This document shows, in pieces, positions 8,501 to 30,402 of a stretch of 64,000 nucleotides of DNA; position 1 is the first letter of the stretch, and the number at the start of each line of letters is the position of its first letter. The DNA is taken from the NCBI GenBank assembly GCA_040437565.1, contig JBDOQK010000024.1, forward strand, positions 248,001 through 312,000, read 5' to 3'. The notes below the pieces were generated by a model. The model did not search any database and was not told where the DNA came from. It saw only the letters and a program-made list of their open reading frames with translations. This DNA is from Albugo candida. Its lineage: Eukaryota. Made by a program: the position numbers and the translations under genes.

Positions 8501-10365
8501 CGTTCTCATTGTTACGTTCTTTGGTGACGACTTTGTTCAAAGACTTTGTGGCCACACGGAACCAATTTGCTGATTATTTGCTTCAGCAAGTATATCGATG
8601 GCTTTGTGCCTCCCATGGAGCGCTTTCTTACGATCGAGAACTTGTGGAAATGGTACAGTTGCTCATGCGAAAAGCTCTGCTTCAATTGCTAGCTGAATTT
8701 CGGCGCTTGGGTGCCGAAGTGATCTATGCCGACGTTGGCAACTCGAAAATAGTCGTCAATACAAAACGAAACTCTATGAAGGAAGCGCAGTCGTATCTCA
8801 ACTTTGTGCTTACGACTATAGCCAAGCAAGAAATGTTTCAGGTGCTCCAATTAACGCCAAGAAGGGTACGTTGCGAGTGAATGTGTTGATACGCTTGTCT
8901 GGGAAAGCTAATGCTTCTCTCTGTAGTTTCTCTCCCATCTCTTCTTTTACGATATTGAAAATTACGGGGCCGTTGCATGGAACACAGACTCGAATGAGTC
9001 CAAGAGCCCAAAACCGATGGAAGACGCCTTACACGTCATTTCGCACTGGAATATCGCCAACTATTTACCGGCTGGCGTTGACGAATACTTTGTCTTACTG
9101 GTCGGCCAATTCATACGACGATATGCGAAATTTCATATTCAGCCTAAAAGCGATGAAAACAACCAAATGAAAGAATCTATCGATGAGTACTTTGATCAGG
9201 ATATGCATATGAAACAACAGCTTCCAAAGTATTTGCAAAATCTGATGCGATCGTATTTTGCCAACAAAATGCTTCGTATCGTCACAGAGATTAACCAATG
9301 TGACTTGGATCCTTCCAGTTTCCCCATGTATGCTGGATCACATCTTCCTCTACAGAATCCTGCTTTAGAGCTGCTCAAATCGGTGACGGCTATTTTTGCA
9401 CTGGAACCAGCAGTGGCACTCGAAGTTGAAAATGTCAAGCGAACGCTTCTTCGAGTCTTGAATGTGAGTGAATTTGCAGAAGCGGCCCGATTTCGTAATC
9501 CTTCGCTCTCGTTCATTATTCCTCAAGTGATTTGCTCGACTTGCAATTTGTGCCGCTCAATCGATGTGTGTCGTGATCCTCAGCTGTTTCAGGTCAACGT
9601 GCTCGGTGAAGATGTAAATGATTCGACTCGGGACGAGAAAACGGAACGGGAAGAGAATACGATGGTCCAGATTCAAAGTGCCTGGCATTGTCCACGTTGT
9701 TTGACCTCGTACGATCTCGAGCTCATGGAGCTTATTCTAGTGGAGATGGTGCAGTTCACATCACTCAACTACCAGCTTCAGGATCTTTACTGCTACAAAT
9801 GTCAACTTCCGAAAGAGCACAAAATGTCACAATATTGTAAGTGTTCTGGGAACTATATATTATCACAGGGTGGAATTCAGAGCAAGAATCAATGGAGTCA
9901 CCTCGGCGGTGATATCCACCAAACCATTCACATTTTATCGCGTATAGCGGTGCAGCACCAATTTTATTATCTCCAAGAAGTGTGCGAGACGCTACAACNN
10001 NNNNNNNNNNNNNNNNNNNNNNNNNNNNNNNNNNNNNNNNNNNNNNNNNNNNNNNNNNNNNNNNNNNNNNNNNNNNNNNNNNNNNNNNNNNNNNNNNNCT
10101 AGTGGAGATGGTGCAGTTCACATCACTCAACTACCAGCTTCAGGATCTTTACTGCTACAAATGTCAACTTCCGAAAGAGCACAAAATGTCACAATATTGT
10201 AAGTGTTCTGGGAACTATATATTATCACAGGGTGGAATTCAGAGCAAGAATCAATGGAGTCACCTCGGCGGTGATATCCACCAAACCATTCACATTTTAT
10301 CGCGTATAGCGGTGCAGCACCAATTTTATTATCTCCAAGAAGTGTGCGAGACGCTACAACTGTGA
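2542..10365 (+). CDS. POLE: DNA polymerase epsilon catalytic subunit
   Basis: Motifs present: ExoI AFDIETTK, motif A YHFDVGAMYPNIILTNRLQP, CysX CAACTFN..C, motif B LAHKCILNSFYGY, motif C LELDTDGIWC, and C-terminal CysA/CysB (CSTC..CPRC; CYKC..CKC). A phase-0 intron at 8866-8926 (GTACG...GCTAAT...TAG) joins the 2470 and 9017 ORFs. The stop lies in the repeated copy after the gap at 9999-10098. Confidence 0.97.
9737..10360. repeat. 262-bp direct repeat around 100-N gap (9737-9998 = 10099-10360), probable assembly overlap
   Basis: Matching sequence ends at the gap and restarts right after it. Confidence 0.9.
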
Positions 10366-10660
10366 TCGTAAAATGTGTATGCCCACTCACCACTGTGCAA
10401 GACATCAGTCAGTATCACTCTACAAATTATTATCGTCGCTAGTGCTCGAACAATATGATAATACATAGTTTAGATTGGCTTGCTATAATTGCACTCTTTG
10501 TTCCTTTCTGTTCTGACTGTACCTTAAAAGTATCTTTTAGCCAGTGACTAGCTATGCAAATTATTATCTTGCTATCATAGCTACCAGTACTATAGAAATC
10601 AGTTGGGGTATTAAACAAGCGAAGAGACCGATACAAATACATAAGAGGTAAGGCGTTGCC

Positions 10661-13486
10661 ATGCAGTCACCCATACAGGGTCAAAAATATACACTCACGT
10701 CTCCAAAAAAACTTGCACCGAGCGATACTATGACAGAAACGACTCCATTTCTCACGAATCGAAAGCTTCTACCTAAGAATCTCGAAGGGAGGAGAAAGAA
10801 AAAGTCGAGGGTGTATCAAACATCAGAGCCTTCGGATATCATTAAAAAAGATGGTGTCGTAAAAAAGAATTCAAAAACGAGGGGAAATGGACCATTACCG
10901 CTTTGGTTTCGAGGCACAATCACGCTAGCCGTAGCACTCACCTTTCTTTGTGTTCTTTCGTTATTGGCGTATGATAAACACCCAGCAGCGTCACATATAC
11001 CGACTTTGTATGTCGGCGTTTTAAATTCGTTGATTGGAAGCTACTTATCCGCAAGCGGGTATTGCTGTCAGAAATGGGCGCACCTGAAAGTTGAGCACCG
11101 CCCGCACATTGGATCCGCCTCTCAGCAAGGATCTTTCATTTTGGGGCTGATACTCTTGGCTATTGGAACTGTATCTGCTGTACTTAACTTGGGCTTACTT
11201 GGGCAAGCTGTGCAAGCCCCATTTGCAGCACTCACGTTGATTCACAGCGCCTTACTTGCTCGATTTGTTCTGAAAGAGAAGTACTCGGTCTACGATGCAC
11301 TATCAAGTATCTTTATCGTTTTAGGAGTTGGTGTGAGTGTATTTGCTGCGCAGTCTAGTTCTACCTTGATGCACGAAGCGTATACGTTGAATTCGCTTTA
11401 TAATGTATTCTTCCGCAATTCTGTGATGCCGGGATTGTATACTATCACCTCGATACTAGTTGTCACTTTTCTTCTTCGTAGAGTCCGTTCTGCACGCTTA
11501 CGTCGTCAAAAAATAGGTCTTTTCGCATTCAGCTTTTGTGCGGGGATCATGGCTGGGTATACAAGTCTCACGACAAAGTCAACGCTGGAGATACTCAAGT
11601 CCATTTTCACTTCTCCGTCACAATCACCGCTACGTTCTGATATACTGAGCTCGGTGATCATGAATCCGTTATTCATCGTGCTGGTCGTCGGTATTCCGGC
11701 GTCTCTCAGTACACAATTGTTTCTTCTCAACAAAGGGCTGGAACACTTTGGAACTCTCAAGTTCATTCCTTTGTATCAGGCTTTTATCATTCTTGGGAAT
11801 ATGTTCTGTGGGGCGGTATTTTTCAATGAGATGATGCACTATACCGCTAAGGCTCTGATATTATTCTTGATTGGAGTATTGATTACCGTTTCCGGGGTCT
11901 GTATGCTGCTAGCCAAGGTAGAACTGGAACGCAGAAACTCGGATGCGACACGGAAAACTTCTGCTGATGATCAGGATCCAGGATCCGCCGAGTCTGAGCT
12001 ATCTCAATTTGAAACAATGTTTTCTTTTTCTGAAATGAAGTGGGCAACAACCGAATCGAGTCCCCATGATCTTGTAATGGCCCATGACTTTGATGAATGC
12101 AAAAAGATGATTGTGAGTCTCATGCAATCAGCAACAAAATCGATCCATTATTCGACATTTCTATGCGATTTCGCTCAGCCACTGAATAAATTTAAAGGAG
12201 AAGACGGGGATTTGAGTATCATATCGTGCATTACTGCAGCAGCAGCTCGTGGCGTTTCGATACATATTCTGTACAATCCAGTCGGGGACTATGGAACGGA
12301 AACAATCAATCGGGTGCAAGCTCAATTACCCCCTGGAGTATTTTTGACTTGCGCTATCAGCAATTTAGGGCCGGGTCCACTGACAAAGTGGTTTTCCAAC
12401 AACTCGAAATATGCATTCCATCACCAAAAGTATCTCTGCATTGACGGAACTAGGATAATGGTTACAGGTTGTGACGTTAACCGTGAAAGAAATGGCTGGT
12501 TGGAACGGAATGAATTAGGATACTATTGGCATGAGGTTAGTGTTTTGGCAAAATGCACCTCAGACATGTTTGAATGGATTTGTCATAACCACGGTGACAA
12601 CGAATTAACGTATACTCCTGTACATCGTCGACTATCAACCGTCACGCAGACTCGGCACCATTATGACGAGAAGCTGGATGCTAATGCACCACCATTTCCT
12701 CTCGTGTCAGGTGGCTGGAGGGAAGAGAATGCAATGGTGAACATGATTCTCAATGCAACTCGGTCCATTCATCTAGAAAATCAAATTATGATATCAGGCG
12801 GTAACTTGCAACACAATCGCGTTCTCAAAGCCATAGCATCACGTGTCGCTCGGGCTTTTGACGAAAAAGATCAAGGTTTTCATGTTATAATTCTGACAAA
12901 TAAGGCACAACAAGATGAACCTTCACTCGTAACCCGTTGGTACTGCACTTTATCGACACAGTGGTCTATGGAACAACTGGAAATTGCGATGTTATCGTTT
13001 GGAATACCACGGAATGAGATCGCAAATTATGTTTATATCGGGAGACTTGTAGCGGATGGTGTCTTGGTGAAGATACACTCAAACATTCTGATCACAGACG
13101 GGCAGTACGCACTCCGATCATCTTCTAATCTAGCGGATCGAAGTCTCAGTTTTCGCCCGACCGATACAGAACTCGGTTTATTATTCTCAGGGCAAGTGGT
13201 CACCCAATTTCAGCAAAAACTATGGAACATGTATTTCCGCACAAAAGACGTTCCATACACGATAGAAAAAGTGTTTGCGCTTTTACGTACATCAACAATT
13301 CCATCCAATATCAAATTAAAGTCGACTAGCTGTGTCGTACAGCTACGCAAACGCCCGTGGAATCCAATGCTCACGCGATTTCTGATGAGTACTTTCATTC
13401 ACGCAAGTGAGGGTGCGACAGGAGGGCGCCGAAAGGTGACATATCAAGTCCAAGCAAAATGCATCGGTAATTCGACTCTCAGCTAA
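10661..13486 (+). CDS. NIPA-type Mg2+ transporter (DMT superfamily) fused to a C-terminal phospholipase D domain
   Basis: Single uninterrupted 941-aa ORF. The N-terminal half has about 9-10 hydrophobic segments with NIPA signatures (GSYLSASGYCCQKWAH; QAPFAALTLIHSALLARFVLKEK; QLFLLNKGLEHFGTLKFIPLYQ; GAVFFNEM). The C-terminal half has HQKYLCID (12422), WHEVS, IHLENQIMIS and HSNILITDGQYALRSSSNLADRS (13076). Confidence 0.88.
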   Translation: MQSPIQGQKYTLTSPKKLAPSDTMTETTPFLTNRKLLPKNLEGRRKKKSRVYQTSEPSDIIKKDGVVKKNSKTRGNGPLPLWFRGTITLAVALTFLCVLSLLAYDKHPAASHIPTLYVGVLNSLIGSYLSASGYCCQKWAHLKVEHRPHIGSASQQGSFILGLILLAIGTVSAVLNLGLLGQAVQAPFAALTLIHSALLARFVLKEKYSVYDALSSIFIVLGVGVSVFAAQSSSTLMHEAYTLNSLYNVFFRNSVMPGLYTITSILVVTFLLRRVRSARLRRQKIGLFAFSFCAGIMAGYTSLTTKSTLEILKSIFTSPSQSPLRSDILSSVIMNPLFIVLVVGIPASLSTQLFLLNKGLEHFGTLKFIPLYQAFIILGNMFCGAVFFNEMMHYTAKALILFLIGVLITVSGVCMLLAKVELERRNSDATRKTSADDQDPGSAESELSQFETMFSFSEMKWATTESSPHDLVMAHDFDECKKMIVSLMQSATKSIHYSTFLCDFAQPLNKFKGEDGDLSIISCITAAAARGVSIHILYNPVGDYGTETINRVQAQLPPGVFLTCAISNLGPGPLTKWFSNNSKYAFHHQKYLCIDGTRIMVTGCDVNRERNGWLERNELGYYWHEVSVLAKCTSDMFEWICHNHGDNELTYTPVHRRLSTVTQTRHHYDEKLDANAPPFPLVSGGWREENAMVNMILNATRSIHLENQIMISGGNLQHNRVLKAIASRVARAFDEKDQGFHVIILTNKAQQDEPSLVTRWYCTLSTQWSMEQLEIAMLSFGIPRNEIANYVYIGRLVADGVLVKIHSNILITDGQYALRSSSNLADRSLSFRPTDTELGLLFSGQVVTQFQQKLWNMYFRTKDVPYTIEKVFALLRTSTIPSNIKLKSTSCVVQLRKRPWNPMLTRFLMSTFIHASEGATGGRRKVTYQVQAKCIGNSTLS

Positions 13487-13649
13487 GAGAGCCGCAAATT
13501 AAAGTGTCAGTCAGTGCATTTTTCTTTTCCATTAAAGAATCGTCAATATATGCATATTTATCCTCACAAAACTGATCCAAAAATCGGGGTCTTCAAAACT
13601 GGGCCTTTAAGCTTGTTCTGTCGTTCTGTGACCTTTGGCTTATCGAGCC

Positions 13650-16600
13650 ATGTCTCCACTGAGACGTCATAAACGCAAGCCAGCTTCAGTGTGGCTGGAT
13701 ACCCTGCAAGACAAAGACAAAGAAGTGAGAAGCGAATCGGAGCAGGACCGTAATGACTACTTGCTCAATCGCCTGAGACCTGGATCAGCAGTTGGTCGCA
13801 AGTACTTTGTGACAAAAAAGGTATCTAAAAAAGAATCGGGTGACGATGGAGCTCGTGCAGTGGATAGTAACACACAATCTGCCACGTACAAAGATGATAG
13901 TAGTACGGTCAAGATGGTTGACTGCATGACCTTGGAAAAATTTGATCGTGGTAAGAATGCCAATACTCGTGAGATGCTGCTACTACAAGCTGGGATCATT
14001 GTAGATTATTGTGCAAATGATTGCCTTTTACGTTACGTATTGACCGTGATTATGGAAAAGCGTCAAATTATTCGCAAGCAGATCCCTAAACTAAATCGTG
14101 CGTTCATTCCCTGTTCTCGTACTGAAGCTGAGTGAGATATGAAGCAGATATTGTTATGCAGAAAGCTGCTACCCCGCATAAAGACGTGCTCTATTTGGTC
14201 AAAATGTCGCCACAAGAGGTTCCGTTTGGATTTGAAAATAACTACTGGCTGAAGATCGTCTCCGAGACCTCGATATCAGCTTTCAAACATGCGACCTTTT
14301 TTACCCTTAGTCCAAATGGAATCACTGAGTTTCGATGCTCTCATATATCGCCTTATTCGAACCAAATCAATACACATTCTCGCACAAATTCCATCAGAGC
14401 GATCGACCTGACCGACTTGATGACCTGGATCAATGAGAAGCTTGCGTTTGACCATATTGCAAGCATGAAAAGTCTTGAGCGTATCCAGCTAATGATTTTT
14501 TACTTATCATGGAAGCATAATACCCTGCAGCAAAAGCATGATCGCGCCAAGAACTATCTGAGCAATCGGTTATTTGTTTGTGATCCTTTTGCTCGTCCAC
14601 TAATCGGTGTGATTCAAGCTCAGTGCTGGAAGGTACTTATATCTAGCATCAATGTCACTGCATCTTCACACGTATAATCGACCATAGATTGCTCAACTTA
14701 ATCCCGATCTACTTACCACGAATATGATCAGAGGATTGAAATCACTTGAAAAGGTTCGAACTTCATTACGGTGAAAATCTGTACCTAAATGCAACGTTTT
14801 ACAGCACCACATAGAGAAGCTTGAAGAAGTAAAAGCTCAGATAGTATCAAATATTCAAATAATCATCTGTGCGATAAACTCACTCGAGAGCTTCCTACTG
14901 GATTCAGGACACAATTGTCCGAGTCGGCAAAACTGCAGCAAATCTCTTCCAAGTATGATGGCAGCGAGCGTCACGTCCAAGAATTCGCAATGCAATGAGC
15001 AAGTAGAAATATTTCGAAATGAATGGCTGGGTTGTGTCACGGCGATACGTGACAAGACTCGTTCGAGCAATTTGACGCAACGAATGTATACCTTATATCG
15101 ATTGACGGATCTTCTGATCAAAGAGTCACTAAGCACGCATCTCGCCCTATATTACGACACATTTTATGCCCGGATTTGTGGTATATCTCGTGATGCCACA
15201 GAACAGAACAAAGCAAACGATTCTATGGACATGACAACCAGGCTTTGCAGTGATGAGGAGTCACTGATTTTGGATATTTTTTATTCAAGACGTTTTTATC
15301 TAAGAAAAGCAAATATCATAGAACCGCCTGAGCCGTTTGTACATGCAAAAGTCGATTTTTCTATCGCAAACAATGGAAACATATCATCAGTCTCGATACA
15401 TCCACAAGAAGAAGACTGTTTGAAAACTATTCATGGGATGTGGCTTGCATTTACTACCGCTTTGGACTCCATGCCTCGAGTGGTAAGGCCATTACGCTCT
15501 CTATTTGTCCACAATGCTAATTTGATGTATTGCTAGATCATGGAAAGGAAAATTGCTTCCAATCTAAACCCGTTCCCACCCGATCAAAAGGCACTATTCA
15601 TCGAGGTTTCCTATCTAAAGCCTTCGTGTCAGGTACTGGCTAAGAATAAGCAGCGTTTCGGAGAGATGAAGCGAGCAATTGAAATCTACTACAAGCAACT
15701 CAATGTATGTTTGCGTTTGTAACGCAGATTCTCTTTATGGGCTCATGCATCTCTGTGAGAAGATTTTATTAGAAGAACACAGAAGAGTACTGTCTAGTAT
15801 TGCCAATATGCATCTTGGTAATGAAATAGCTAGCGCCGCAATTTTTGAACGAGCAACGATTCAAGTACAACAAGATTTAGATGGTTCGACACTTCCTGAT
15901 ACATCGTTTCTCTCTGACGCATCTTTCAGCATCGATGCTTTTGAGGACGAGTACAAGACTTGGACCTCTGTATATGATTATGCAACTATGCGTCAATATA
16001 GTCAAGTTGGCATGATTGTACTCGATCAAAGTTCTCTTTTATCCTTTCTCAACTTGCAAGCCAGGGAAGGATTGATGGCAAACGTGCAAGCACTACCTCG
16101 ATGTTACGAGTACTTCTTGCGGGTGATGATCAATATTCTTCGTCCTATAATGGAGCATATCACTATTGTTGCGACGACGATTGAAGAAGGCAGAGTTTGG
16201 GTAGCAAGGGCAAGTCAATTACTCAGTAGCCATCCGTGGCGGAAATTATTCGACTCACACTGTATGAAACTGAAGCTATTCAGAGAAGTCATATCACGAC
16301 GTGCATGCGATGATCATGATTCCTCACTTTTAGATGATAGTGATCAAGTTGATCTTCGTAGATGTGAAGTCGAGTGGGAATCACTTTTTGAAGCCTTCTT
16401 GTCATGTTTGAAACGCGTGCAAGAGCGAGATTGTGATCAACGAAGAATTCTTGACAACTTGCTGGACACGACAGAGCAAAGTATCACGAGCAAGACACAA
16501 GCATTAAGACGTGAATTCTGTCAGGAATTATCGATACTGAAAGGAGCGGAACATCTTGATGAAATCGGGACCATTCAACCGAGGAATTCGGGAAGCCCGC

Positions 16601-19600
16601 AGTTGTTGATACAAAAAATCAGAAGCGTTGTCGATCTCGAATCTGAAAAAATGATGTTACAAGAACATTTGTTAAAATTGAATACTTTGGGAAGCTTCTC
16701 GCAAAAAGAAGCACGACGAGAGTGTACGAAGAAAAGTTTAATTACATTGGGAACGAAAGAGATTGAAGGTCAAATGAGTGATGAAATAGCTGGATTTGAA
16801 AAGCTATCCCCGAGTAGGACACTTTTGGATCAAGCGCTATTTGTGCTAGATATACGAAATCATCTCAAAAAATGGTTTTCTTGTGTCATGACATGGAATG
16901 AAACTTATATTCTTAATCTCGATCCCGATGCTGTATCCTCTCAGCTCAGTCAGTTCCGTTGTTGGGTATCTGTATCCCTGCATCACATTCATGCACTTAA
17001 ATGGGAAGATGATGAGGCTCTTGCAGACAGTGAAAAAATCATTCAAATTCCACTCGATACCGAGCTGTATTCTTTAAACATCGTACAAGGTCAAATCCAT
17101 GAAATGGAGGAAAATTTGAGTATTATAACTGCTTTGAAGAGTAAATCTTTCGACGAAGACAAGTGGCGAATGCTGCCTTGGGAAAGTATCTGTGTCCTTT
17201 TAACTCACGAAAACTCACAACAGCAATATGGTGACCCCGCTCGCACTTTACGAGAATTTTTGACTTTACAAACATTGCAAACCCTGTGGAAGCAACACAA
17301 AGAGTCTTCAACACCCGAAAATACCACAGGAGTGGAAGGTTTTGCAATTCACACTAAGCAGTCCTTACTCGATCTGAGCAGAGATGTGAACGAAAGTGAT
17401 GCGCTGGGTCAAAGGGTAGCAAATCTTGCCAGTAAACTTGACACAATTCTCATTAGGATTGTTCCAACGAATCTGTTGCCCGAGGAATCAGCAGCCGGGG
17501 AGGGAAAAGGTCTCACAACCTTTGTAGCTACTTCTTATCATATCGATGGGCTACGAAAAGCATCTATCGCTTTGCAAGAAATTTGTATGGAACTCAGGGT
17601 TTGTCGCCAATTTAATCGCGGCTATTTCCTCAGCCTGATCCAAGATACTTATACAGATGTTCAGAATCGAATTCGATTATGTCACAACATTGAAAACTTT
17701 CAGAAGAACTGGCTATCCATAGCTGAAGCCTCCAAGCTATATGAGATTGACGAATTCACCTGTAAAAAGGATCAGGAATCACTACACACTTCTATAATGG
17801 GTCGACATGTAAGCAAGAGGAATTTTGAGAGTGACTGGAAATCAATCTGCAAGACTTGGACATTATGGAATGACTGCTTGCGTGACCTCTATCTAGCAAA
17901 AGAATCTCCGAATCAGCTAACAAGGGTACCGTCCAACAAAGACAAAGTTGGCATCATTTCGTCTCATTATACGTCTCAGTCTGCACAAAAAATCGCAAGC
18001 AATTTGAAAAAGTCAACCGATGTGAAGTCTAACTTGTCGAAAAAGCACGTCCAAAGAAAATGGCGAAGAATCGACGACGTATGGAACGCATTTGCGAAGT
18101 TTGATTGGGAGCAACATGTACAATACTGTGAGAAAGCTCTATTTATTTTGGATGTGTATCTCACAACCTGCGTGAGAGAAAAAGTTCCGAGACTGTATTG
18201 CCTATCCAACCAGGAACTTTTGCATCTAATGCTTATCGCTGATCACGAGGTCCACGAGTCAGCAGATACAAGTACCAGCTCAATCATACTCAATTCTGTA
18301 TTTGCTAAATGCTTCTCTCCCGGACTCCATTTTGAAGTTTGCGACGCACAATCAGGAGCAATGCGACCAGATACTGAATGGAAGGCTGATGAAGAATACA
18401 GCCACGCTACTTCAAGCTTTATCTCAACAATCAGAGGCGTTTCTCTTTCGTCACTAGACCAACGCGTATCTCGGAAAAGAACTGGGATGCTTTTTTTCAG
18501 CGCTCCCATTGTCCTTGTCGGACGACTTGCATTTTGGTGGGTTAGGCTTGAAGGTGAGATGTACAAGGTAGTACACGATAATGTATGGCTTCTTATCGAT
18601 CAGTTTACTTCATACCTTGAAGAATTAGAAAACAGCGAGGTTGACGAACTGAGTAGCCATAGCGTCGAGAAGGAAATGATCGTAAGCTCATGGATCACGC
18701 GTCAAGAAAAAATCACAAAACGTCCAATACTACCTCAGTCTATTGTGACCGCACTGATGAGTTACTTTACCAGAAAACTGGACATCACATTATCTTCCTT
18801 GAGCGCATCAACAAGCTCTGAAAACAACAAAGCTCAGAGTCTTTCGCATGTCACAGAGATACAATCGCGGATTATGGAGAACTTGGTCGACTGTTATCGG
18901 GATTCCACGACGCAAATGAGAGTCAAAGTTCATATTGATAATTTGTTACTTGTTTGCATCTATCACCGTGAGCTTATAACGATCCTCGTTCAAGCTTCAA
19001 GAGACGGAAGATCTCCTGAACTGATCTGGAAACTGCAATTGCGCCTACTTACCGAATCAAAAGTGACCGAGCACCTGCAATTACTCAAAGATAGTGCCTC
19101 TAGCACTTCCAGCCATCGCTCAATGTACAATGCGGTCTCGAATGCGATGCACTATCTCAGGCCGAATGATCAGAGAGCAGAACTTAAATCAAAGTCAAAG
19201 CATCAGAAAAGCTCATTAGGCCTGATAGCTTCTGTTGGCGATATCTCCATCCCATTTGGACACGAGATGATTGGGAACTACAAGCTTTCTTTCCTCACAC
19301 CGTGCACCGAAAGGTGCTTATTTGCGCTGTGGATGGCATTACGCTTCCAAAATTTGGCTTCGTTCACATCGAGCCCAGATTCAGACAAATCAAGTATTGC
19401 TGATGGATCAACGTACGTAAATGATATTGGTATGCTGCTTATGCGGTGGTGCGTGCGCTACACCGTCAGCAATCACGTCCAGAGCTCAGGTAGTCTCAAT
19501 TTACACACACGTACAAATCTTTTGTGTCGTCTGCTGCACGCAATCGTTGCACTGGATGGATTTTTGCTTATTGATGCTCGGGAAGACCTGAAGCACATCA

Positions 19601-22600
19601 AACAAGAGATGTTCCGTGAAATCAGATGCCAAATTGAAAAGTTTCGCGTGTTAGCGACACAGATTTCTCACGAGGGAAGTCCAAATGTCACGTCAACAGC
19701 AGCTCAGATGCAGTCTACTCCTGGGATTTGGATCTTTACGAGTCCGGCTCAGTTCAAGCGGAAGAATCTTTTCAAAAGCATAGATACGAACTTTCAGACA
19801 TTTTCAATCATCTCACCTCCTATCGAGCTTATAGTCACATCCTTGCTTATACGATCCGGAAGCGATTTACAAGATGTTTATGACACTCGGATTCCTATGT
19901 TTTTGAATGAGTTGTTGGATTACGAACAGGACCCTGAAAGACTGAGCACTCTCGCCTCAGTATTTGGCCTCGCTTTGACGTCCTCTATGCATATAATTCG
20001 TCATATATTTTCAGCTATCAATGATCTCAAGAAAAGTGCCAAAATATTGTACTTCCCAAGCAAAGATGAATCAGCACAACGAAGAATGACGAGAGTAAGC
20101 ATGACGGCTAAAGATATCAATAGAGACGGTAACGTAGACCGTGACGCATGGATACTTGCTCAGCAAGCTATGATTCATCACGTCCTTGAGAGTAGTATGC
20201 ATCGAAGGCTAAACTTTCTCCATTCAGCAAGTAGTACGATGCACCACCGCATCACTATGCTACTCAAATTGCTAACTTACTTACAACAAAAGTATCTACC
20301 GGTCACTGCACAGTGCAGGGTCTACGAGTTTGCCAAAAGGTTTGTCAAACTAGCAGAACCAATCCCGGAAGCCTTACGCATTGCAGCATATCATATGCAA
20401 AAAGATTGTAACGAACAGATCACAAATGTGTGTCTTGATAGTTGGAAATCGATGCAATCTCAGATGGACCTTCGCCACGCAGCACGCGATAGGACGAGCA
20501 ATTCCCAAATGGCTGTACCTTTGGGTATTATCGTATATGGTGATCCTGCATGTGGCAAAACGACTATGATCAAAATTCTTCATCACGCTATCTGCGCTCT
20601 AGAAGAGATTGATGATTCAGATGACAGATATATAGATTTTGAAGGACGGGATGTTCGAACGGTACGACCCGCAGAGTTAGCGACAATAAACCCTCATTTG
20701 CTTGGTGCTTTGGATTTGCTCGGTGAGTTTGCTAAAGATACAAGTCTTCATGAGACAGGAGTCGACACGGCTCGTTTTGGCTTACTCGGGAGAATGCTGA
20801 ACCTGAAAAAACGACACAACGATGACCTGGGCTCGGAAGATAGCATTGTGAGAAGACGCTGGATCCATGTTGATGCGAATGAAGCGCTGTCAAGCGCCTG
20901 GATTGAAGACTTTGTCACGTTTACATCACATTACTATCGATCAATTTCTGATACCTTTGGCAGTGTTCAGAGGAATTGGTCGTTTATATTCGAAACAATA
21001 GACCTGTCAGCTGCCTCCCCGTCATTTCTCTGGATAGTTTTTCGGCCTGTGTACGTAGAAAGCAGTCTTTATTCCTATCAGGGTCTCATAGAACGATGGA
21101 AGACTACCTGGCGGCACCGTCAAGATTCGAGCCTCCAGATTGATGAGGACCCTATATCTTCTCCGGCGGCCCAGCTTTTATCGCATGCATTCCAACTAGT
21201 TGAAGTGATTTTGACTGATGTTTGCAATTCGTACACACAATCAAGTTTTGATTGTAGTGGCAGTGAAAGTATCTCAACCTTTGGTGGAATTTCTTTCAAC
21301 TATTTGACGATCCATACTCTTGATGTCCTGGACTACATTCTGTCTAACCTTCTGGAACAATTACGAGAACAAGCTAAAGCAGAACCTTCCATCAAGAGTA
21401 ACGGTACAAAATCCTCTTTTCTATTATCGTCTCGATATAATTTATCAAGAGCAATCCGTCTGTGCTGCTTTGGAATGGTATGGTGTGTCTCGGGTCATTT
21501 AGAGGAGATCAATCGAAGAAAATTTGAGCTGTTGGTTCGGCAAAAGCTGGGGAATATTTCTCGCGACAAAATCTTTGCTGTAATTAGTGAGTCAGAAATG
21601 AGCTTATACGCATCCGAGGAATTTTTCAGAAGCTCAAGCTCCCCCAAGCAGTACAAGCAAAAAGTTGAGACGATATATTATCTCCCAGCACGCGATGCGT
21701 TCACAAACTTATTTGACTTTGCTCAGTTGCTGCTTTCGACTGGCAGAGGCTCCTTTCTACTATTTGGACCACGCGGATGTGGAAAATCGAGCTTATTGAG
21801 GCGCCTGATGCAAGAGATCAGTAAGAAACTCGAAGAGGAACGTGATCTGGAAGTTCCAATGAAAGCTAGGCAAACTCGTAGCATACTGGACATGAATGAC
21901 CGCGGTAGACTCGTAGTCGATTTCTCTACAGAGGATCATGAGGCAGCAATCGACGACATGCCTCGTCATGTCAATGAGCTACCATCAGCTTACGATTACG
22001 TATTTATCGACAATCTCTCACTGCTGGAAGAGCATCAGAAACAATTCAATTATCATCAACAAAATATCATGTCCACAGCTCAGTATGAATGGATTCGGAC
22101 AATATTGGATCATCAGTTATGCTATCACCATCCCACACGGAAGATGGAACATTGCAGAAAGCAATTTGGGGGCGCCTTAAGTACCACAGAAGAGCGAGAC
22201 TGGAAGCCACAATTGACGCAAAGGTTTATCCGCCATTTTACCTTACTACGAGTACCACCATTGCTCAAACACGAAACTATGTCGATATTTCGAGGGAAAT
22301 TCCGTGAAGTCTTCGATATACCCTTAGAGACCCCTGCGCCAGTCGAGGTGATTTGTCGCCCGTTCCTATCCATTGAAGAAGCAATTTTGAGATCAACCGT
22401 TGATTTTATCGATGAATTCACCAAAGTCACTGGACACTGGCGAATCTATTGCACGGAGGCTGCTGGAAATTATATACAATCGCTTCCTGTACTGCTTCAC
22501 ATAAATTCGCATCACATCAATGAGATTTTAAGTCGCACACTACGTTCTCATCGAGAGGCTGTGTCAGATCAGACTAAAAATAATGAAAACAATACCTTCA

Positions 22601-25600
22601 ATCCTCAACATGAGAAGAATCATGATGCAACACGGCTTCGGCAGCTCGGATATGCCCATCAGGTCTGGCTTACAGAAATTTTCCAAACTGGGTATGACAC
22701 TTGGTCCAAAGTCATGGATACTATGAGCAAATCTCTACTGGCCAAACAAAGCTCTAGAAGTCTCTCGATTCTAGAAATGTTACATAAGGATCAAGAGGCT
22801 GTCCGACAAGCTCTACGGCTAACAAGTGAGAAGTACTTCAGTATGTCACTTTCAGCAGTTCAAGGCTGGAGCTCAGACGGTGGCAAAGCGACAAGTGGGG
22901 GTAACATCAGCCCACTTCAGCAGCAAGAAATGATGTCTTTCTTGCATCATATACTTCAATGGTATCGTTTGAATCCCCAACGAACCACAAATCAATTGAT
23001 CGGGAAAAATCTATCAGATTGGTACCGACGCGTATGCCAAGTCGCAATGAATTCCACAAATCGATACGCTCTTGAGAATGGTGATAAAACTTATTCTCTA
23101 CCAGGTCATATAGCATCCGAAAGCACACAATGGTCTATTTTGCGTCATGAAATTCTCAAGAAATGTCTTTCGAACGCAAATCAATCAATGAAGTCTCCGA
23201 AAATGGTACAAGGAATGAGTGAGATCCATTCACTCTCAACGGGCGAAATTAATATGTGGCTGTCCACCGACTGGTGGCAGTACCGATTGCTACAATTCAC
23301 AGCAGCGCTGTTAAGTGGGAAGCATCTTTTTGTCCTGCACATCCGCAATGAGCGCTCCACTAAAAACAACCTTCTTCAGCCAACTATTTGGAGCTTGGTG
23401 TCTATGTCAACCCGTTTAGGCTGTTATTCTCACGCGTATCAGGTACACATCGATCTTTTACGCCTGAAAGACCTTATCAAGATACTCACTATGACGGGCG
23501 TCTATGATCTTCGAGTGATTCTATGGATCAGAGATAGTCTAAATGATGACGATGATGACGCGGAAGCGCATTGGAATCACAATGAGATGTCCACGGTTGT
23601 CCTCTTGCTGAAAGATATTCTCTGTAACCAAGTCATGGCACCTCAGTCCTGGATATTAGAGCAAACTAATCCCGAGATCAATGACCAAGGGACCACCAAC
23701 AATGCAGCAAACGCGGGAACCGATCAAAAGATAGACCATATTCAAGATACATGGAACTATATCTATGATGAAGTACTCCAAACGAAGAAAAAAAGTCTCA
23801 AGGTTTTGACTGAAAGGAGTTTTCGTGAAAAAGTGATGAAAAATCTGCACGTTTGCATCGTTGACCAAGTCGATGACAATGAGCCGTATCGTGAAAGTTT
23901 GAAAAGTCACAAGAAATTAAAGCCATCACGCTGCATCAAAGACTTTGTCGATTTACCTTCGGTGCGATGGGTAGTCATCAGAGAAGAAACGATCGATTCC
24001 AAAAGCCCTTTTTTTAGTCAAATTCTCCGGGGCTGCATTACAATGTTTGGAGAATGTATTGAGAACGCAATCTCACATTTGGCTACAAGCAAAGTCATCA
24101 ATCAACAACGATACACCACGCATGAAAGACTTTACGAATTCATCATTGATAATCATAACTTTTGGAATGGGATGAAAGGGTCTCCGTTAACATTTACGCG
24201 ATTTTTAAAGAATTGGGTGTGTGCTTGTGCAAAAAATGTGGCATGCAAGAAACTAAAGCTAATAAGAAAACATCGATATCACACTGCGCTGAGAAACTTC
24301 GATACCTTGATGAGCAAGCTGACGGCCAGAAGACAACTTCTTGAGACCGAATTGGTCTCCCAAATCCAAGTGGTCACCAAAAACATTGAGGGAGTTCTAT
24401 GCACACTAGAAGCCTCCTGTGCCGACTCCATAAATAATGCTATCGCGAACGGCGCTACTACGAGAGATATCGCTGATGAAGACAGATTTAAAAGCCTTCA
24501 AACGGTATTGTTGCATAACGCTTCCTCTAAACAAGCTCAAGAAGATTTGTGGGCTCTACATAGTAGGAAGGAGGAGTACGCAATGAGAGAGATGGAGATA
24601 AGAACACGAACCAAAGAGCTTAAAGACATCGAGATGAAATGGAAAAACTATCGCGCTATTATAGAGGAGGACTTGTATCGAGCTAACGAATTGAAGAATA
24701 TGTCAATGACTGAGTCAAATTGGAGGACGTTTATAGAATTATGTCCTTGGCGTACATTGATCCAATGCAGCAAAATTAGCTTCTTAAGCGAGATGTCATT
24801 AAGTGACCAAAATGCACGAATTTCGGATCTCATTTGCCTCGTCAAAACGTTTTGTATAAATGCAAAGATTGAGATATTAGATAACTCATTTGAAAAGCCG
24901 GAAACGATTGTGAAGATACCAGCCATCGTGGAGCAAATTTGGCTGTATCTTTTCCCATACATATCCTCCCGAAGGATCTCGGAAATCATCTATCTAGCTG
25001 ATTCATGGTGTCATCAAAGCAAATTTGAGCTCAGAAGCCGAGAGTACTTGATACCTGTGTTTACTGACACTACAGGATGCCTAATCCAGCACTTCCTGAC
25101 ACATATTCTTGCAGGAAAATCGATCTTTTCCACTACTAAAAATCGTCGTTCGGTCCCGAAACAAGCCGAAAAATTCTATGCGCTTGATCCCGCTAGTGTT
25201 ATGGTGCTTACCAGCCAAGACATGGATCTTGAAATTAAACTTATCAAGGCAGAAAAACATGACATTCCAGTGGTTCTAACGAATTTTAGGCCTGAGACAA
25301 AGAAACGCTTGGAAATGCATTTTGCCGCTATGGAGACCCGTTCTCATGAGAACCCGATTGAAGCCAGCAACTCCATTTACAGTAATCTCTCACTTTTGGT
25401 TACTAAGACACTTTGGTCAAATTCCGAGAACGCCAAAGCAAAACATTTCTTGGAGAATGATAGGAGATTAAAGCAGCAAGTTAACAGACCCGCATCACTC
25501 TGGAGAACAGCGGTAGATTTAACATTAGCAGTAAAACAAAAGACCGAGAAGCAGAAGAATTTTTCCAGGATCGCCCTGTCTTCAGTGAACAACCAGAGAG

Positions 25601-28600
25601 AGCTACGAATTCCTTCGGGAAAGAAGCCATTAAGCGGATACAGTGATCCTTGCGCAGAATACTGGAAGCCATGGTTTCAAGTGTATGCGGTCTCAATGAG
25701 CAAGCTTGATCTCATGGCGATGAATTCTGATCTCGCGAGCTCGCAGGTTCAATTCATGGAGTTTGATTTAGATTGGCAAGTTGAGGATTTGACAAAGTGT
25801 TTTGATCAATGCAAGGGCCAAGAATTCAGCAAGATTACTAAACCCGTAGCTGATACAATTAAATCTTATAAAGCCTCAGACAACCACAGTGATTCGTCAC
25901 AAGTTTTAGAGTCTTCCGTTCTACTATGGCGGCGGAAGTGTGACTTGGTCGATTTTTGCATGTGCGAAATGTCTGATTTATTCGATCCGAACGATCACAC
26001 GACTCGAAATGGAGACAATGATGCTCAGTTCACAAGCCCTCATCTTCGAATCGGGATAGAAAAGATGCTACATCACTTGGAATTAATTGCAAAGGAAAAG
26101 TACGAAGCCGAGTCAGTTGATACATTATCACCGACCACAGAATCTGCGTTTCATCCTCATAAAGCGTCGATTATACCTTGCGAAAAGTATGCCTATGAAC
26201 TCGCTTGCATTGCGACGACCGTCATGCTTTGTGATCAAGCGATCTACGATGACAAAGTAAAGCATTTTGACAAGCATTTACATAGCGACAGATGTTTACA
26301 GACATACCCTGGATTCAAATCGATGCGTTTGCTCCAAGAACTGACAGCCAAAAATGCCGAATCGGATCTCTCACAGCTGATTCATAGAGTTCTACATGAT
26401 GTGTCTCGCCAGTACTCAAGTCCGGGTCAACAAGTGCTATTTCGTTTGGTATGGCTTGTCATTCAAAAAGATCAGAAGGCTAGAGTACCTTTGAAGCATT
26501 TTTTCAGAGTCTGGGCAGAAAATGACAATCGTTGCAGCTGGATAGAGTATTGGAATACTGTGAGTTTACTACGAGAGGATCACACACTGAATTTAGCAAG
26601 CACAGCTGACAGATGTGCAGTACAATCATGTAACGAGCAAGAACGCACTGTGGATTGTTATAGTTCCGTTGTGTCACGATTGAGGCGAAAGTTGAGGCAC
26701 TACAATGCGTTCTTGCGTCGATTGCGTCCAGAATCAGGCCTAATTCCACCGAGCAATTCAGGCAGTGAGAATATTTTGCATCCATTGCAGGAAGAAGACT
26801 TTGTCAGGGATGTCAATTGTTTGGTTGCCCGAATCGAAGAACTATGGATGCACTGGATCCAATTCCATAAAAACTGCAAGGAAGTGTATCTTCCTGAAAT
26901 CATACAAACGCTTTACATGGGAGGAAGTGTGGACTCGAAGCATCCCAACACATTTTCAGATGAAGTGAAGGGCTCTGGTAGTATTAGAAGTCGACAAGCC
27001 TCGCAAAAGGTTCCGAATACCGATGCTCATTCCGTGATACAATTATCGGTCGGACATGGATTCAGAGGTAAACGACGGAGTGCTGTCATATCACATCGCA
27101 ANNNNNNNNNNNNNNNNNNNNNNNNNNNNNNNNNNNNNNNNNNNNNNNNNNNNNNNNNNNNNNNNNNNNNNNNNNNNNNNNNNNNNNNNNNNNNNNNNNN
27201 NAGAACGCACTGTGGATTGTTATAGTTCCGTTGTGTCACGATTGAGGCGAAAGTTGAGGCACTACAATGCGTTCTTGCGTCGATTGCGTCCAGAATCAGG
27301 CCTAATTCCACCGAGCAATTCAGGCAGTGAGAATATTTTGCATCCATTGCAGGAAGAAGACTTTGTCAGGGATGTCAATTGTTTGGTTGCCCGAATCGAA
27401 GAACTATGGATGCACTGGATCCAATTCCATAAAAACTGCAAGGAAGTGTATCTTCCTGAAATCATACAAACGCTTTACATGGGAGGAAGTGTGGACTCGA
27501 AGCATCCCAACACATTTTCAGATGAAGTGAAGGGCTCTGGTAGTATTAGAAGTCGACAAGCCTCGCAAAAGGTTCCGAATACCGATGCTCATTCCGTGAT
27601 ACAATTATCGGTCGGACATGGATTCAGAGGTAAACGACGGAGTGCTGTCATATCACATCGCAATGAACACAATGATTTTGGGATCGAGCCCTATACTGTT
27701 TACTCCTTGGTACGATCGCAAATCACATTGAAATCACTATACGATGTTGAGAACACATTTGGTCACATCGCGAAAAACGAAGCGAGTCCAAATAACCTTC
27801 TCGCAAAAGCCTGCATTGCGATGCTGTTATTTCCAGTCCAAGTACCAGGCTTATTGCTCGAGTACTCGAATGTAAAAGCAAAGCAGCCGAATGGAATTGA
27901 AAGCACGACGTTGGAAGGTAATATGATGGAGTCAGATTCTAATGACAAACCGAACGTTGCGCAGCCAAATAACTCTGCTGTAGAATTCTCTCAGCTTATC
28001 TGTCCAGAGTGGCAATTCTGTAGCACTCCTACATTCATTGCATACGAAGAAAATTTATCAGATGCCACATGCACCACCCGGCGTGCCCTGGAATATGAGA
28101 TTCTTCTTCTGTCAACAAGGAGTGCTTTAGACAGAGCAAACTACACCTCTTCTAACGTGACGTTATTCTACTTGTGTCTTCAAACAAATAAGGATGAATG
28201 CGACCTAAAGCATGAAATTAATAGCATCAGCACTCAAGCAATGGAGAAGAATCAGCAGGAGCTCACGAGGGCAGCAAATGAGGCACCCAAGTGTAATGTT
28301 ATCATTTTTGAGATTCTGGAGACCAAGCACTTTGGTTTTCTGTGCGCAATGGTGTCTTCAGTCGTCAATCAGCATTCCTTGCTTGAATTTCCAGAATGGT
28401 ACATTCTTTGTCCGAAACATGTAGCCCGTGTATTGGCATCAATAAATATGCTCACCCATCTGAAAATACATCAACTCCCGATGAANNNNNNNNNNNNNNN
28501 NNNNNNNNNNNNNNNNNNNNNNNNNNNNNNNNNNNNNNNNNNNNNNNNNNNNNNNNNNNNNNNNNNNNNNNNNNNNNNNNNNNNNTGTCTTCAGTCGTCA

Positions 28601-30402
28601 ATCAGCATTCCTTGCTTGAATTTCCAGAATGGTACATTCTTTGTCCGAAACATGTAGCCCGTGTATTGGCATCAATAAATATGCTCACCCATCTGAAAAT
28701 ACATCAACTCCCGATGAATTCTCAATTCCCGCTGTCAGAACTTCTTTCGAATATATGCCCAAGAAAGTCCATGAAACCACCCGACATGAACTTGTATGAA
28801 TGGGTTCAATCTGAACATGGTATACTTCCTCCAGTGGCACTGGCCGAGAACGTAGGTACTAGAGGTGGATGTGAAAGCAGATTGATACACGGCTGTTTAA
28901 ATACTCAGTTGCAACAGCTTCTTGCATTCCATCGCCACATGACTGAAAATGGAAAAAGTAACACTCCGATGTATCAAATCATCTCTGCTCAGGAATGGGA
29001 ATATCTGAACAATAGCTTGACGAAATGTAACAAGGTGATTGATCCAACAGGAGAAGCTTCTTTTGCGTACAACGAGTTTATCGACACTTTCAGTATTTTA
29101 GTGAGAAATATGAATTGGTTGAGAAAAGAAGATGAGCATCACGGATCGGATGGGAGCGATGTACGAATAATTAGCGAAACTGAGAGACATCAGGAGTCCA
29201 TTGATGATTTTCAGCATTGCATCTATGAAAGCCCGCAGAGCAATGCCCCAAAAGTATTCCGAGAATTTGAAAGTTTGCTTCAAAATTTGAACAAAGTATA
29301 TTGTGATTCCCTTAAAATTATCTCACAGCTTGATCAGAAGCTGAGTAATGTGTGGTACGCTTGGATTTCTCCTGAGCTAGAATTACGAATTGGTTCCAAG
29401 TTCGTGGGGTCTATTCTGGGTCAAGTGAAAGAGATATCGCCAAGTGACGAGCCCTGCGATACAAAGCATCATCTCGATTTCTTATCCATTTGTCGAGGAT
29501 CCATTCCTCCATCAATCATACTAAATAGCGCACTTCTCGCTTCAGGCAATGACCCCGCGTGTGAAATTTACAAAAGCTGGGCGACATGGATTCGGGAGGA
29601 TAAATTGCAAAGTATATCGATGCCTCAGCTTCTGATGCTCTTACTGGGACGGCTTCGTACATCAATTGACTTGGTGCTGTGTAGCCCAAACTCGTTCAAC
29701 ATCAATCTCGCTCTTTTATGGAATGTCCCTGACTTTTTCATAAAGTGGAAAGAGCACTACAATGAACACAAAGAAAAACTAGCATACACTTTAGGACCTC
29801 AGCATAAAATAAGTGGTATTGGCGCATCCGAAATGTTGCTCTGCTTTAAATTAGAAATATTAACGCAAGAAAGCGGTGATGCAGTGGATACTTTAGTCGA
29901 AAAGACGGTAAATCACTTGGAATCAGCAAAGAGCGAAAGATCTGCGCAGTGTGAAAGCTGTGTTTTAAGCGGTCTGACTCTCATTCAAGAACGAGTCCAC
30001 TTGATTGCTGGCAAGAAGATAGTCTTCTACCCGCTTGGAAACACTCGTTTGCATATAAAAGAGCATGAAGACGGCATCCAGCTCCACCACACTTGCGTGT
30101 CAATGAGACTAATACCCTCACTCAGTCCGTTTCAAAATCCGCCTTTAACAGAGTTCCCAAACTCATTGCCATGCGTCTGGGTACCAACAGAACTTCTCGA
30201 TGCGATTGAAGCGGCCTTTTCCGGTGACGAAGAAGAGCACACACATATAGGCCAAAGTACTTATGAAGCTCACAAAGCTCGAAAAAGCATTGAAAATATC
30301 AGGAGAAAGCAGTCAACACGAAGGAATTCATTGATCATTCCAAAGAAATTTGCGACAGCATTTTCCATTGGAATTCCTATCCTTCCATCTGAATTCACAT
30401 AA
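13650..30402 (+). CDS. Highly divergent axonemal dynein heavy chain-like protein (multi-exon, spans two gaps)
   Basis: Dynein landmarks occur in the expected order. N-terminus resembles DNAH6 (FFTLSPNGITEF; LSWKHNT...AKNYLSNRLFVCDP). Linker: PRLYCLSNQELLHLM. AAA1 entry: FGHEMIGNYKLSFLTPCTERC. AAA2: GDPACGKT and FIFETIDLSAASPS. AAA3: GPRGCGKS and RFIRHF. AAA4: FREKVMKNLHVCI. AAA5: PVFTDTTG and LIKAEKHDIPVVLTN. Exon boundaries between 13650 and 15780 are approximate, and joining the 5' exons is inferred. Confidence 0.8.
26640..27663. repeat. 462-bp direct repeat around 100-N gap (27102-27201), probable assembly overlap
   Basis: 26640-27101 is repeated from 27202. Confidence 0.9.
28353..28718. 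repeat. 133-bp direct repeat around 100-N gap (28486-28585), probable assembly overlap
   Basis: 28353-28485 is repeated from 28586. Confidence 0.9.

Follow-up and report, generated by a model that had tools for sequence, protein, structure and literature searches.

An oomycete dynein heavy chain with a degenerate AAA1 ATP site and a stalk lacking a recognisable microtubule-binding domain

Dynein heavy chains that depart from the motor plan have been described in several lineages. The sea urchin heavy chain DNAHX is kept, expressed and non-motile; its AAA1 is degenerate and its stalk tip defective. As far as the consulted sections of this preprint describe it, it is restricted to animals and of outer-arm origin, ATP binding and Walker B are retained in its AAA1, and its microtubule-binding domain (MTBD) is present with insertions (PMC11785096). 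The same sections present DNHD1, of class 11 in animals, as an orphan heavy chain whose AAA1 lacks the Walker B Glu (PMC11785096). In the classification of Kollmar (2016), class 12 is holozoan, has no typical microtubule-binding site, carries an outer-arm-type tail and reportedly misses the coiled coil, and the oomycetes have classes 14-16 of their own, defined with Albugo and Phytophthora genomes included. In classes 15 and 16 the AAA domains carry extensions, the AAA5 region is unique and no strut can be identified; class 14 has extended MTBD loops and, in Albugo, no C-sequence, and in the parts of the paper used here ATP and microtubule sites were left unanalysed and force production was assumed (PMC5100056).

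The window, by which we mean the whole 64,000-nucleotide stretch of DNA of the white-rust oomycete Albugo candida that was analysed, holds at 13650-30402 (+) a single dynein heavy chain gene encoding 5211 residues. Its product resembles DNAHX in being kept, apparently expressed and degenerate in AAA1 and at the stalk tip, and differs from it in having lost both P-loop and MTBD; the outer-arm-type tail and animal range of DNAHX, a protein compared by description, are replaced by a class-9 tail and an oomycete range. It shares with DNHD1 the missing Walker B Glu and with class 12 the missing microtubule-binding site, but unlike class 12 it keeps the coiled coil. Its N-terminal tail is like that of class 9 (DNAH6, Chlamydomonas dynein g, and the class-9-type tails of b and e), whose members are active motors, whereas the window dynein is, judging from its sequence and models, almost certainly non-motile.

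The gene is organised as follows:

13650..15704 (+), exons 1-6, N-terminal tail (exon 1 13650-13950; exon 2 14005-14097; exon 3 14148-14632; exon 4 14688-14753; exon 5 14805-15482; exon 6 15537-15704), from GT..AG introns spliced out in contigs of runs X1 and X2, an open spliced frame and a family profile match
15763..30402 (+), exon 7, with the remaining tail, linker, AAA ring, stalk, C-sequence and stop; P0001 is identical at 4579 of 4614 residues
27102..27663 (no strand), assembly artefact, 100 N and an exact copy of 26640-27101, from duplicated flanks
28486..28718 (no strand), assembly artefact, 100 N and an exact copy of 28353-28485, from duplicated flanks

The original prediction of a main exon open for more than 11 kb, and hence of a gene that is no decaying pseudogene, held: the frame at 15670-27225 is open over 3851 codons, the two subsequent frames up to 30402 belong to the same gene and are split by 100-N gaps, and once spliced and de-duplicated the 5211 codons contain no internal stop. 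A frameshifted pseudogene was rejected because the frame breaks are these N gaps. All seven gaps of the window (at 9999, 27102, 28486, 37836, 44398, 52814 and 61180) are runs of 100 N between exact duplicates; through this assembly artefact DNA polymerase epsilon, symplekin, NSUN5 and the dynein gene come out wrongly split or doubled. The start codon at 13650 is a prediction based on the reading frame and on NCBI gene models, and the family profile places further tail sequence in short frames starting at 13632. Intron 1 (13951-14004, 54 bases, in frame) is translated by both NCBI A. candida gene models; A. candida CCI46551.1 falls in the same protein cluster, at 99% identity to the window protein.

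Six GT..AG introns of 50-58 bases each are absent from the public contigs of runs X1 and X2, which span 13500-26500 within one record, and since these contigs skip the introns the gene is presumably transcribed, X1 and X2 being one study with a run type presumed to be RNA. Contigs of runs X3 and X5 have none of the six introns spliced out. The spliced X2 contig continues about 2.7 kb upstream of 13500 into a neighbouring gene (10652-13486) that joins a NIPA-type transporter domain and phospholipase D domains in one frame; oomycetes have a transmembrane PLD class.

By itself the protein is hardly recognisable as a dynein, and its identification took profiles. When the spliced, de-duplicated protein was scanned with dynein HMMs, as had been proposed, it alone matched only AAA_6 of Pfam (E 0.02), and DHC_N2, AAA_6 and AAA_7 were present in its orthologues, DHC_N2 above the cut-off. 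A single-sequence PDB search found no dynein, just weak proteasome ATPase matches. A ten-row family profile was collinear with solved dyneins (best 8glv_Mm, E 3e-38) and recognised tail, linker and AAA1-4 in the expected dynein order. Modelled with AlphaFold (mean pLDDT 57), the segment 19207-22446 matched dynein AAA1-3 in Foldseek at E 1e-16 and in VIA at Z 18.5 (rmsd 6.5, 561 aligned). In an atlas search the motor piece led to dynein clusters at 0.95 and the tail piece to nothing exceeding 0.76. Midasin was ruled out, as it is a separate gene on C3. Going by profiles and models, the window gene is a member of the dynein heavy chain superfamily, and its linker and AAA1 can be read as follows:

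18175..18204 (+), linker end, REKVPRLYCL (canonical R..FPRF.FL), from profile alignment and DHC_N2 in orthologues
19255..19340 (+), AAA1 entry, FGHEMIG..LTPCTERCLFALWMAL, from alignment and AAA1 profile
19369..19425 (+), degenerate AAA1 P-loop, SSPDSDKSSIADGSTYVND, from alignments and AAA1 profile
19561..19584 (+), degenerate AAA1 Walker B, FLLIDARE in place of CFDEFNR, from alignment and AAA1 profile
19729..19746 (+), AAA1 sensor-I, WIFTSP in place of FITMNP, Asn lost, from alignment and AAA1 profile

The motifs reported in the original prediction lie where it had put them (LTPCTERCLFALWMAL; SSPDSDKS at 19369; FLLIDARE, at 19561; GDPACGKT at 20539; GPRGCGKS at 21766; GKHLFVLHIRNERS at 23317). 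A profile of ordinary AAA1, built from ten dyneins of the same genome, found one domain in the 5211-residue protein, at residues 1744-1963; it scored 13.8 bits (E 1e-6), and no domain in 200 shuffles exceeded 0.7 bits. Neither a Walker A-like motif nor the intact GxxGxGKT elsewhere in AAA1 that was sought as a refutation occurs in the six frames of 17500-20530. The site taken for Walker A, SSPDSDKS, is indeed dead, but the register has to be moved: in the ordinary-AAA1 profile and an L-INS-i alignment the canonical GKT falls on (A)DGST, 19399-19413, after a short insertion, a plain MAFFT alignment giving SDKS. In A. laibachii the counterpart of SSPDSDKS is SSNSGIPS, and because the Lys of SDKS is not kept there the P-loop is dead in both registers.

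These losses extend to the whole family. In 20/20 aligned oomycete family rows, the comparison across relatives that had been suggested as a check, AAA1 has neither of its Walker motifs (A and B) nor the Asn of sensor I, and GPAGTGKT, DEFNR and the Asn are intact in 10/10 ordinary dyneins of the A. candida genome. A regex census of 28 rows, many of them close Phytophthora relatives and non-independent, located the AAA1 anchor in 26 and GK[TS] or DE.N in none of these; P0025, whose anchor was missed, has a dead AAA1 in the alignment, and P0028 begins downstream of AAA1. Outside Albugo the P-loop position mostly reads V(A)P[YF], and two P. palmivora rows have an additional GK[TS] about 120 residues upstream of AAA1 that other rows are without. 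At the level of sequence, the AAA1 of the window dynein is devoid of P-loop Lys and Thr, catalytic Glu and sensor-I Asn.

The rest of the ring mixes retained and degenerate sites:

20539..20562 (+), AAA2 Walker A, GDPACGKT, kept, from family alignment
21013..21048 (+), AAA2 arginine-finger position, ASPSFLWI in place of ASPATVSR, from family alignment
21766..22017 (+), AAA3 from Walker A GPRGCGKS (kept) to Walker B VFIDN, from family alignment
23317..23361 (+), AAA4 P-loop position, degenerate, GKHLFVLHIRNERS, from family alignment
25054..25700 (+), AAA5 start PVFTDTTG, then a long class-specific insertion, from the motif and a weak AAA_9 match in P0053 (E 0.003)
29959..30399 (+), C-sequence, from motifs and Dynein_C matches, below cut-off, in relatives P0020 (E 5e-5) and P0021 (E 2e-4)

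The prediction that AAA2 and AAA3 keep their P-loops and AAA4 has lost its own was borne out across the family: both P-loops are matched in 26/28 rows (of the other two, P0018 has a single one and P0027 an AAA3 variant), and the regex census found GK[TS] in AAA4 in 0 of 28. Albugo and several others have lost the Arg of the AAA2 SRCG motif, which we take to be the arginine finger serving AAA1; Phytophthora retains it. The Walker B Glu is required for hydrolysis; in AAA3 the family has DN or DD (DD in relatives, as in ordinary axonemal dyneins) and no Glu, which is likewise missing from AAA3 in six ordinary axonemal dyneins of A. candida. Motifs of AAA5 and the C-sequence are present, Pfam matches to both staying below cut-off, and AAA6 had no Pfam recognition.

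The second loss, on which the original prediction was silent, concerns the stalk:

24184..24780 (+), shortened stalk, two long helices and a link of about 26 residues, without MTBD, from span, AlphaFold and MTBD profile

The span from the AAA4 exit to P..DP.G of AAA5 is 233-297 residues in 17/17 family rows (287 in the window protein) and 413-441 residues in the seven measured of nine ordinary dyneins, the other two missing an anchor. The alignment gap of the family stalk corresponds to the MTBD and distal coils. An AlphaFold model of 23959-25251 (mean pLDDT 59) has an 89-residue helix (76-164), about 26 residues including a short helix, and an 84-residue helix (191-274), with block pLDDT of 74-88 in the cores, the stalk base retained and no globular tip; in Foldseek it met generic coiled coils only, none at E <= 0.001. 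An MTBD profile built from ordinary dyneins matched 3/3 held-out ordinary dyneins and Saccoglossus P0029 (E <= 1e-21) and 0/28 family rows, which include fragments that lack a stalk. As it also misses the C15 dynein despite the full-length stalk of the latter (span 499), the profile alone cannot separate loss from divergence, and the argument is carried by stalk length and model. Together, span and model show a predicted stalk that has lost the MTBD and kept a coiled coil.

The C15 locus (C15:248612-262626) holds a second dynein with a dead AAA1, having no P-loop, a Walker B reading LLVENAQR and no C-sequence; as a sequence it fits class 14 of the Albuginales as outlined by Kollmar. Elsewhere in the genome, C127:1763-2367 and C6:677581-678092 hold dynein relics (AAA_7 and AAA_9) that are broken and contain stop codons, and C68:128759-148058 holds a cluster of at least five near-identical calmodulin genes. 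Since Pfam searches missed even the window gene, there may be a third divergent dynein.

Evidence on ancestry comes mainly from the tail:

14171..14632 (+), best-conserved tail block, ..FTLSPNGITEF..WINEKLAFD..IFYLSWK, class-9 type, from the tail profile and a PDB tail match to 8glv_Mm (domain E 1e-9)

Searched against 42 targets, the family tail profile matched only C28 (E 1e-16), which is DNAH6-type, and C19 (E 3e-12), which is closest to 8glv_Mm; the runner-up was at 0.06, and the class-8 type tail of C41 and class-7 type tail of C52 were unmatched. C28, C41 and C52 are the three intact single-headed inner-arm dyneins found in the A. candida genome, which thus still has an intact class-9 dynein, C28. 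A frame of 1009 codons at C19:468898-471924 (-) encodes a tail of class-9-beta type and ends at an early point of the linker, the flank examined containing no motor; it is either a relic or a tail-only protein. In a motor tree, from which C2 and C56 were excluded because the cutting rule failed, the family forms one clade (100/100) on a long branch, its Albugo branch being very long (1.73 changes per column), and the parent class is not resolved. The proposed descent from a DNAH6-like inner-arm dynein is therefore upheld by the tail, with its class-9 matches to C28 and C19 only, and the motor domain is not placed by the tree; derivation of this pseudo-dynein from a class-9 (DNAH6/dynein-g type) inner-arm dynein is a reading of sequence supported for the tail. 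Complex predictions of the tail with a centrin of its own genome scored 0.31, 0.31 and 0.29 against a mark of 0.34, run with no alignment and no controls.

The searches recovered relatives from Phytophthora, Nothophytophthora, Lagenidium and Albugo, and all full family matches with a named taxon are oomycetes; the A. laibachii orthologue is 63% identical to the window protein. The sole non-oomycete match, P0029 of Saccoglossus (E 2e-5), also lacks the AAA1 Walker B Glu in the alignment, but its AAA1 P-loop (GPSGTGKS) is intact and its MTBD complete, and it lies outside the family clade in the motor tree, where branches are long. The suggested parallel with DNHD1 is accordingly fair as an analogy and fails as orthology. 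Conservation ranks highest in tail, linker and AAA2-lid/AAA3 and lowest in AAA1 and stalk/AAA5: identity among non-Albugo rows is 0.35-0.50 for tail and linker, 0.40-0.43 for AAA2 lid and AAA3, about 0.30 for AAA1 and 0.23-0.34 for stalk and AAA5. Among 40 listed of 156 strain differences, 39 are coding, 24 nonsynonymous and 15 synonymous, giving for the tail and linker region only a pN/pS of 0.47 (p 0.019). This signal of selection is modest, and the stronger sign is the persistence of full-length genes with the same losses across deep oomycete splits. A spliced transcript, 5211 open codons and a family extending from Albugo to Phytophthora and Lagenidium bear out the predicted non-motor pseudo-dynein kept by selection.

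Searches bearing on distribution and expression were less telling. The family searches, two of which scored the best 1400 or best 8000 candidates, recovered no named downy mildew, and equally no flagellate Plasmopara, named Pythium or Saprolegniales, and are hence uninformative on aflagellate species. A metagenome scan for the orthologue gave 221 pattern matches, 0 confirmed. P. infestans PITG_16110, 23067 and 23068 are not in a flagellar gene list nor among the listed rows of a life-stage RNA-seq table, tables that merge or filter gene models; PPTG_09581 is not in a zoospore membrane proteome that includes one dynein heavy chain. PITG_16108 and PITG_23066 are spore-induced but not among the family matches, and we do not count them as evidence.

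Matched by class descriptions, the window gene probably belongs to Kollmar's class 15 or 16: like them it is oomycete-only and divergent, with AAA insertions, an odd AAA5 region, a C-sequence and an axonemal-class tail. The lost MTBD is unmentioned in the consulted class description (PMC5100056). Class 14 was ruled out by the missing MTBD and the presence of a C-sequence. In the literature searched, with subscription papers outside its scope, no description of dead sites or lost MTBD in oomycete dyneins was found, and Kollmar's Figure 2 may show a short stalk. The class has probably been catalogued, a point that had escaped the original prediction, and the double loss of ATP site and MTBD has probably not been described before.

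What could such a protein do? With the ATP site and MTBD lost, and these losses common to oomycete relatives, it is probably a structural or regulatory, non-moving part of the zoospore flagellum; a flagellar role as such is likely, and that of a scaffold or regulator plausible. It could be neither a motor nor a stalk brake. Albugo and Phytophthora produce zoospores, as the parts consulted of two papers report (PMC3130010, PMC3471859). At about even chances, we propose an oomycete-specific non-motile dynein, derived from class 9, that serves as a force-free placeholder or scaffold at an inner-arm site. In single-headed arms the N termini set position, and actin with centrin or p28 is carried (PMC10266980, in part); class-9-type tails associate with actin and centrin (PMC5100056, in part). 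The conserved class-9 tail would still dock on the doublet with actin and centrin, the light chains of class 9, so that the protein would fill an inner-arm site. AAA2 and AAA3, the latter with DN/DD and no Glu, would hold nucleotide solely to keep the shape of the ring. Rigid, nucleotide-bound and anchored by its tail, the ring would make no powerstroke and no contact with the adjacent doublet, exerting neither force nor drag, and by occupying its site may tune the flagellar beat of the zoospore or the assembly of the axoneme.

A different partner role deserves weighing, in which the locked head pairs with active inner-arm dyneins and inhibits them on their way to the flagellum, with no standing part in the axoneme. 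DNAHX, with its degenerate AAA1, defective stalk tip and phi-like heterodimer, sets a precedent (PMC11785096, in part), and the linker and AAA2-3 face are conserved in the family and the stalk base is retained. We nevertheless hold this somewhat unlikely, as the best-conserved block is the N-terminal class-9 docking segment, which suits doublet docking, and DNAHX descends from an outer-arm chain that dimerises via its tail and has a role that is itself a proposal. A place elsewhere in the cell, be it the basal body, the flagellar root, the cleavage apparatus or the hyphal cytoskeleton, with the tail as a centrin- or actin-binding anchor, would agree with the gene identifiers missing from flagellar lists and with a transcript in X1/X2 whose life stage is not recorded; the axonemal-type tail speaks against it, as does the fact that every named holder genus makes zoospores (the genera other than Albugo and Phytophthora do so too), and we consider it improbable.

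The remaining readings deny either the function or the immobility of the protein. That it is a functionless duplicate in slow decay might be read from the very long Albugo branch, the residue changes in 24 of the 39 coding strain differences and the broken dynein relics elsewhere in the genome, but 5211 open codons with six spliced introns, and full-length relatives in Albugo, Lagenidium and Phytophthora sharing the same losses and the same retained P-loops, make this very improbable. A motor driven by AAA3, a domain in which almost every row conserves Walker A and the R..RHF motif, is scarcely credible given the missing MTBD and the AAA3 Walker B without Glu. Within the preferred reading of a force-free inner-arm dynein lies a bolder and rather doubtful variant, a 'blank' in competition for the site of the active class-9 dynein, on certain doublets or in one flagellum only, which, together with the second dead dynein, would contribute to different anterior and posterior beats.

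Overall, our results point to one more way, independently taken, in which a dynein became non-motile, and the loss goes further than in DNAHX or DNHD1: ATP site and MTBD are both lost and yet a gene of about 5000 residues is retained across oomycetes. This would overturn the assumption, made so far, of force generation by the oomycete-specific classes. What orphan dyneins do has yet to be settled even for human DNHD1, and oomycetes offer a knockout-capable microbe with swimming cells that are easily filmed. If the competition model is true, the C15 dynein, with its full stalk, would be a possible brake alongside the blank dynein, and the anterior and posterior flagella of the zoospore could beat differently from one gene set. 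The two dyneins would then be candidates for explaining how a single cell builds two unlike flagella.
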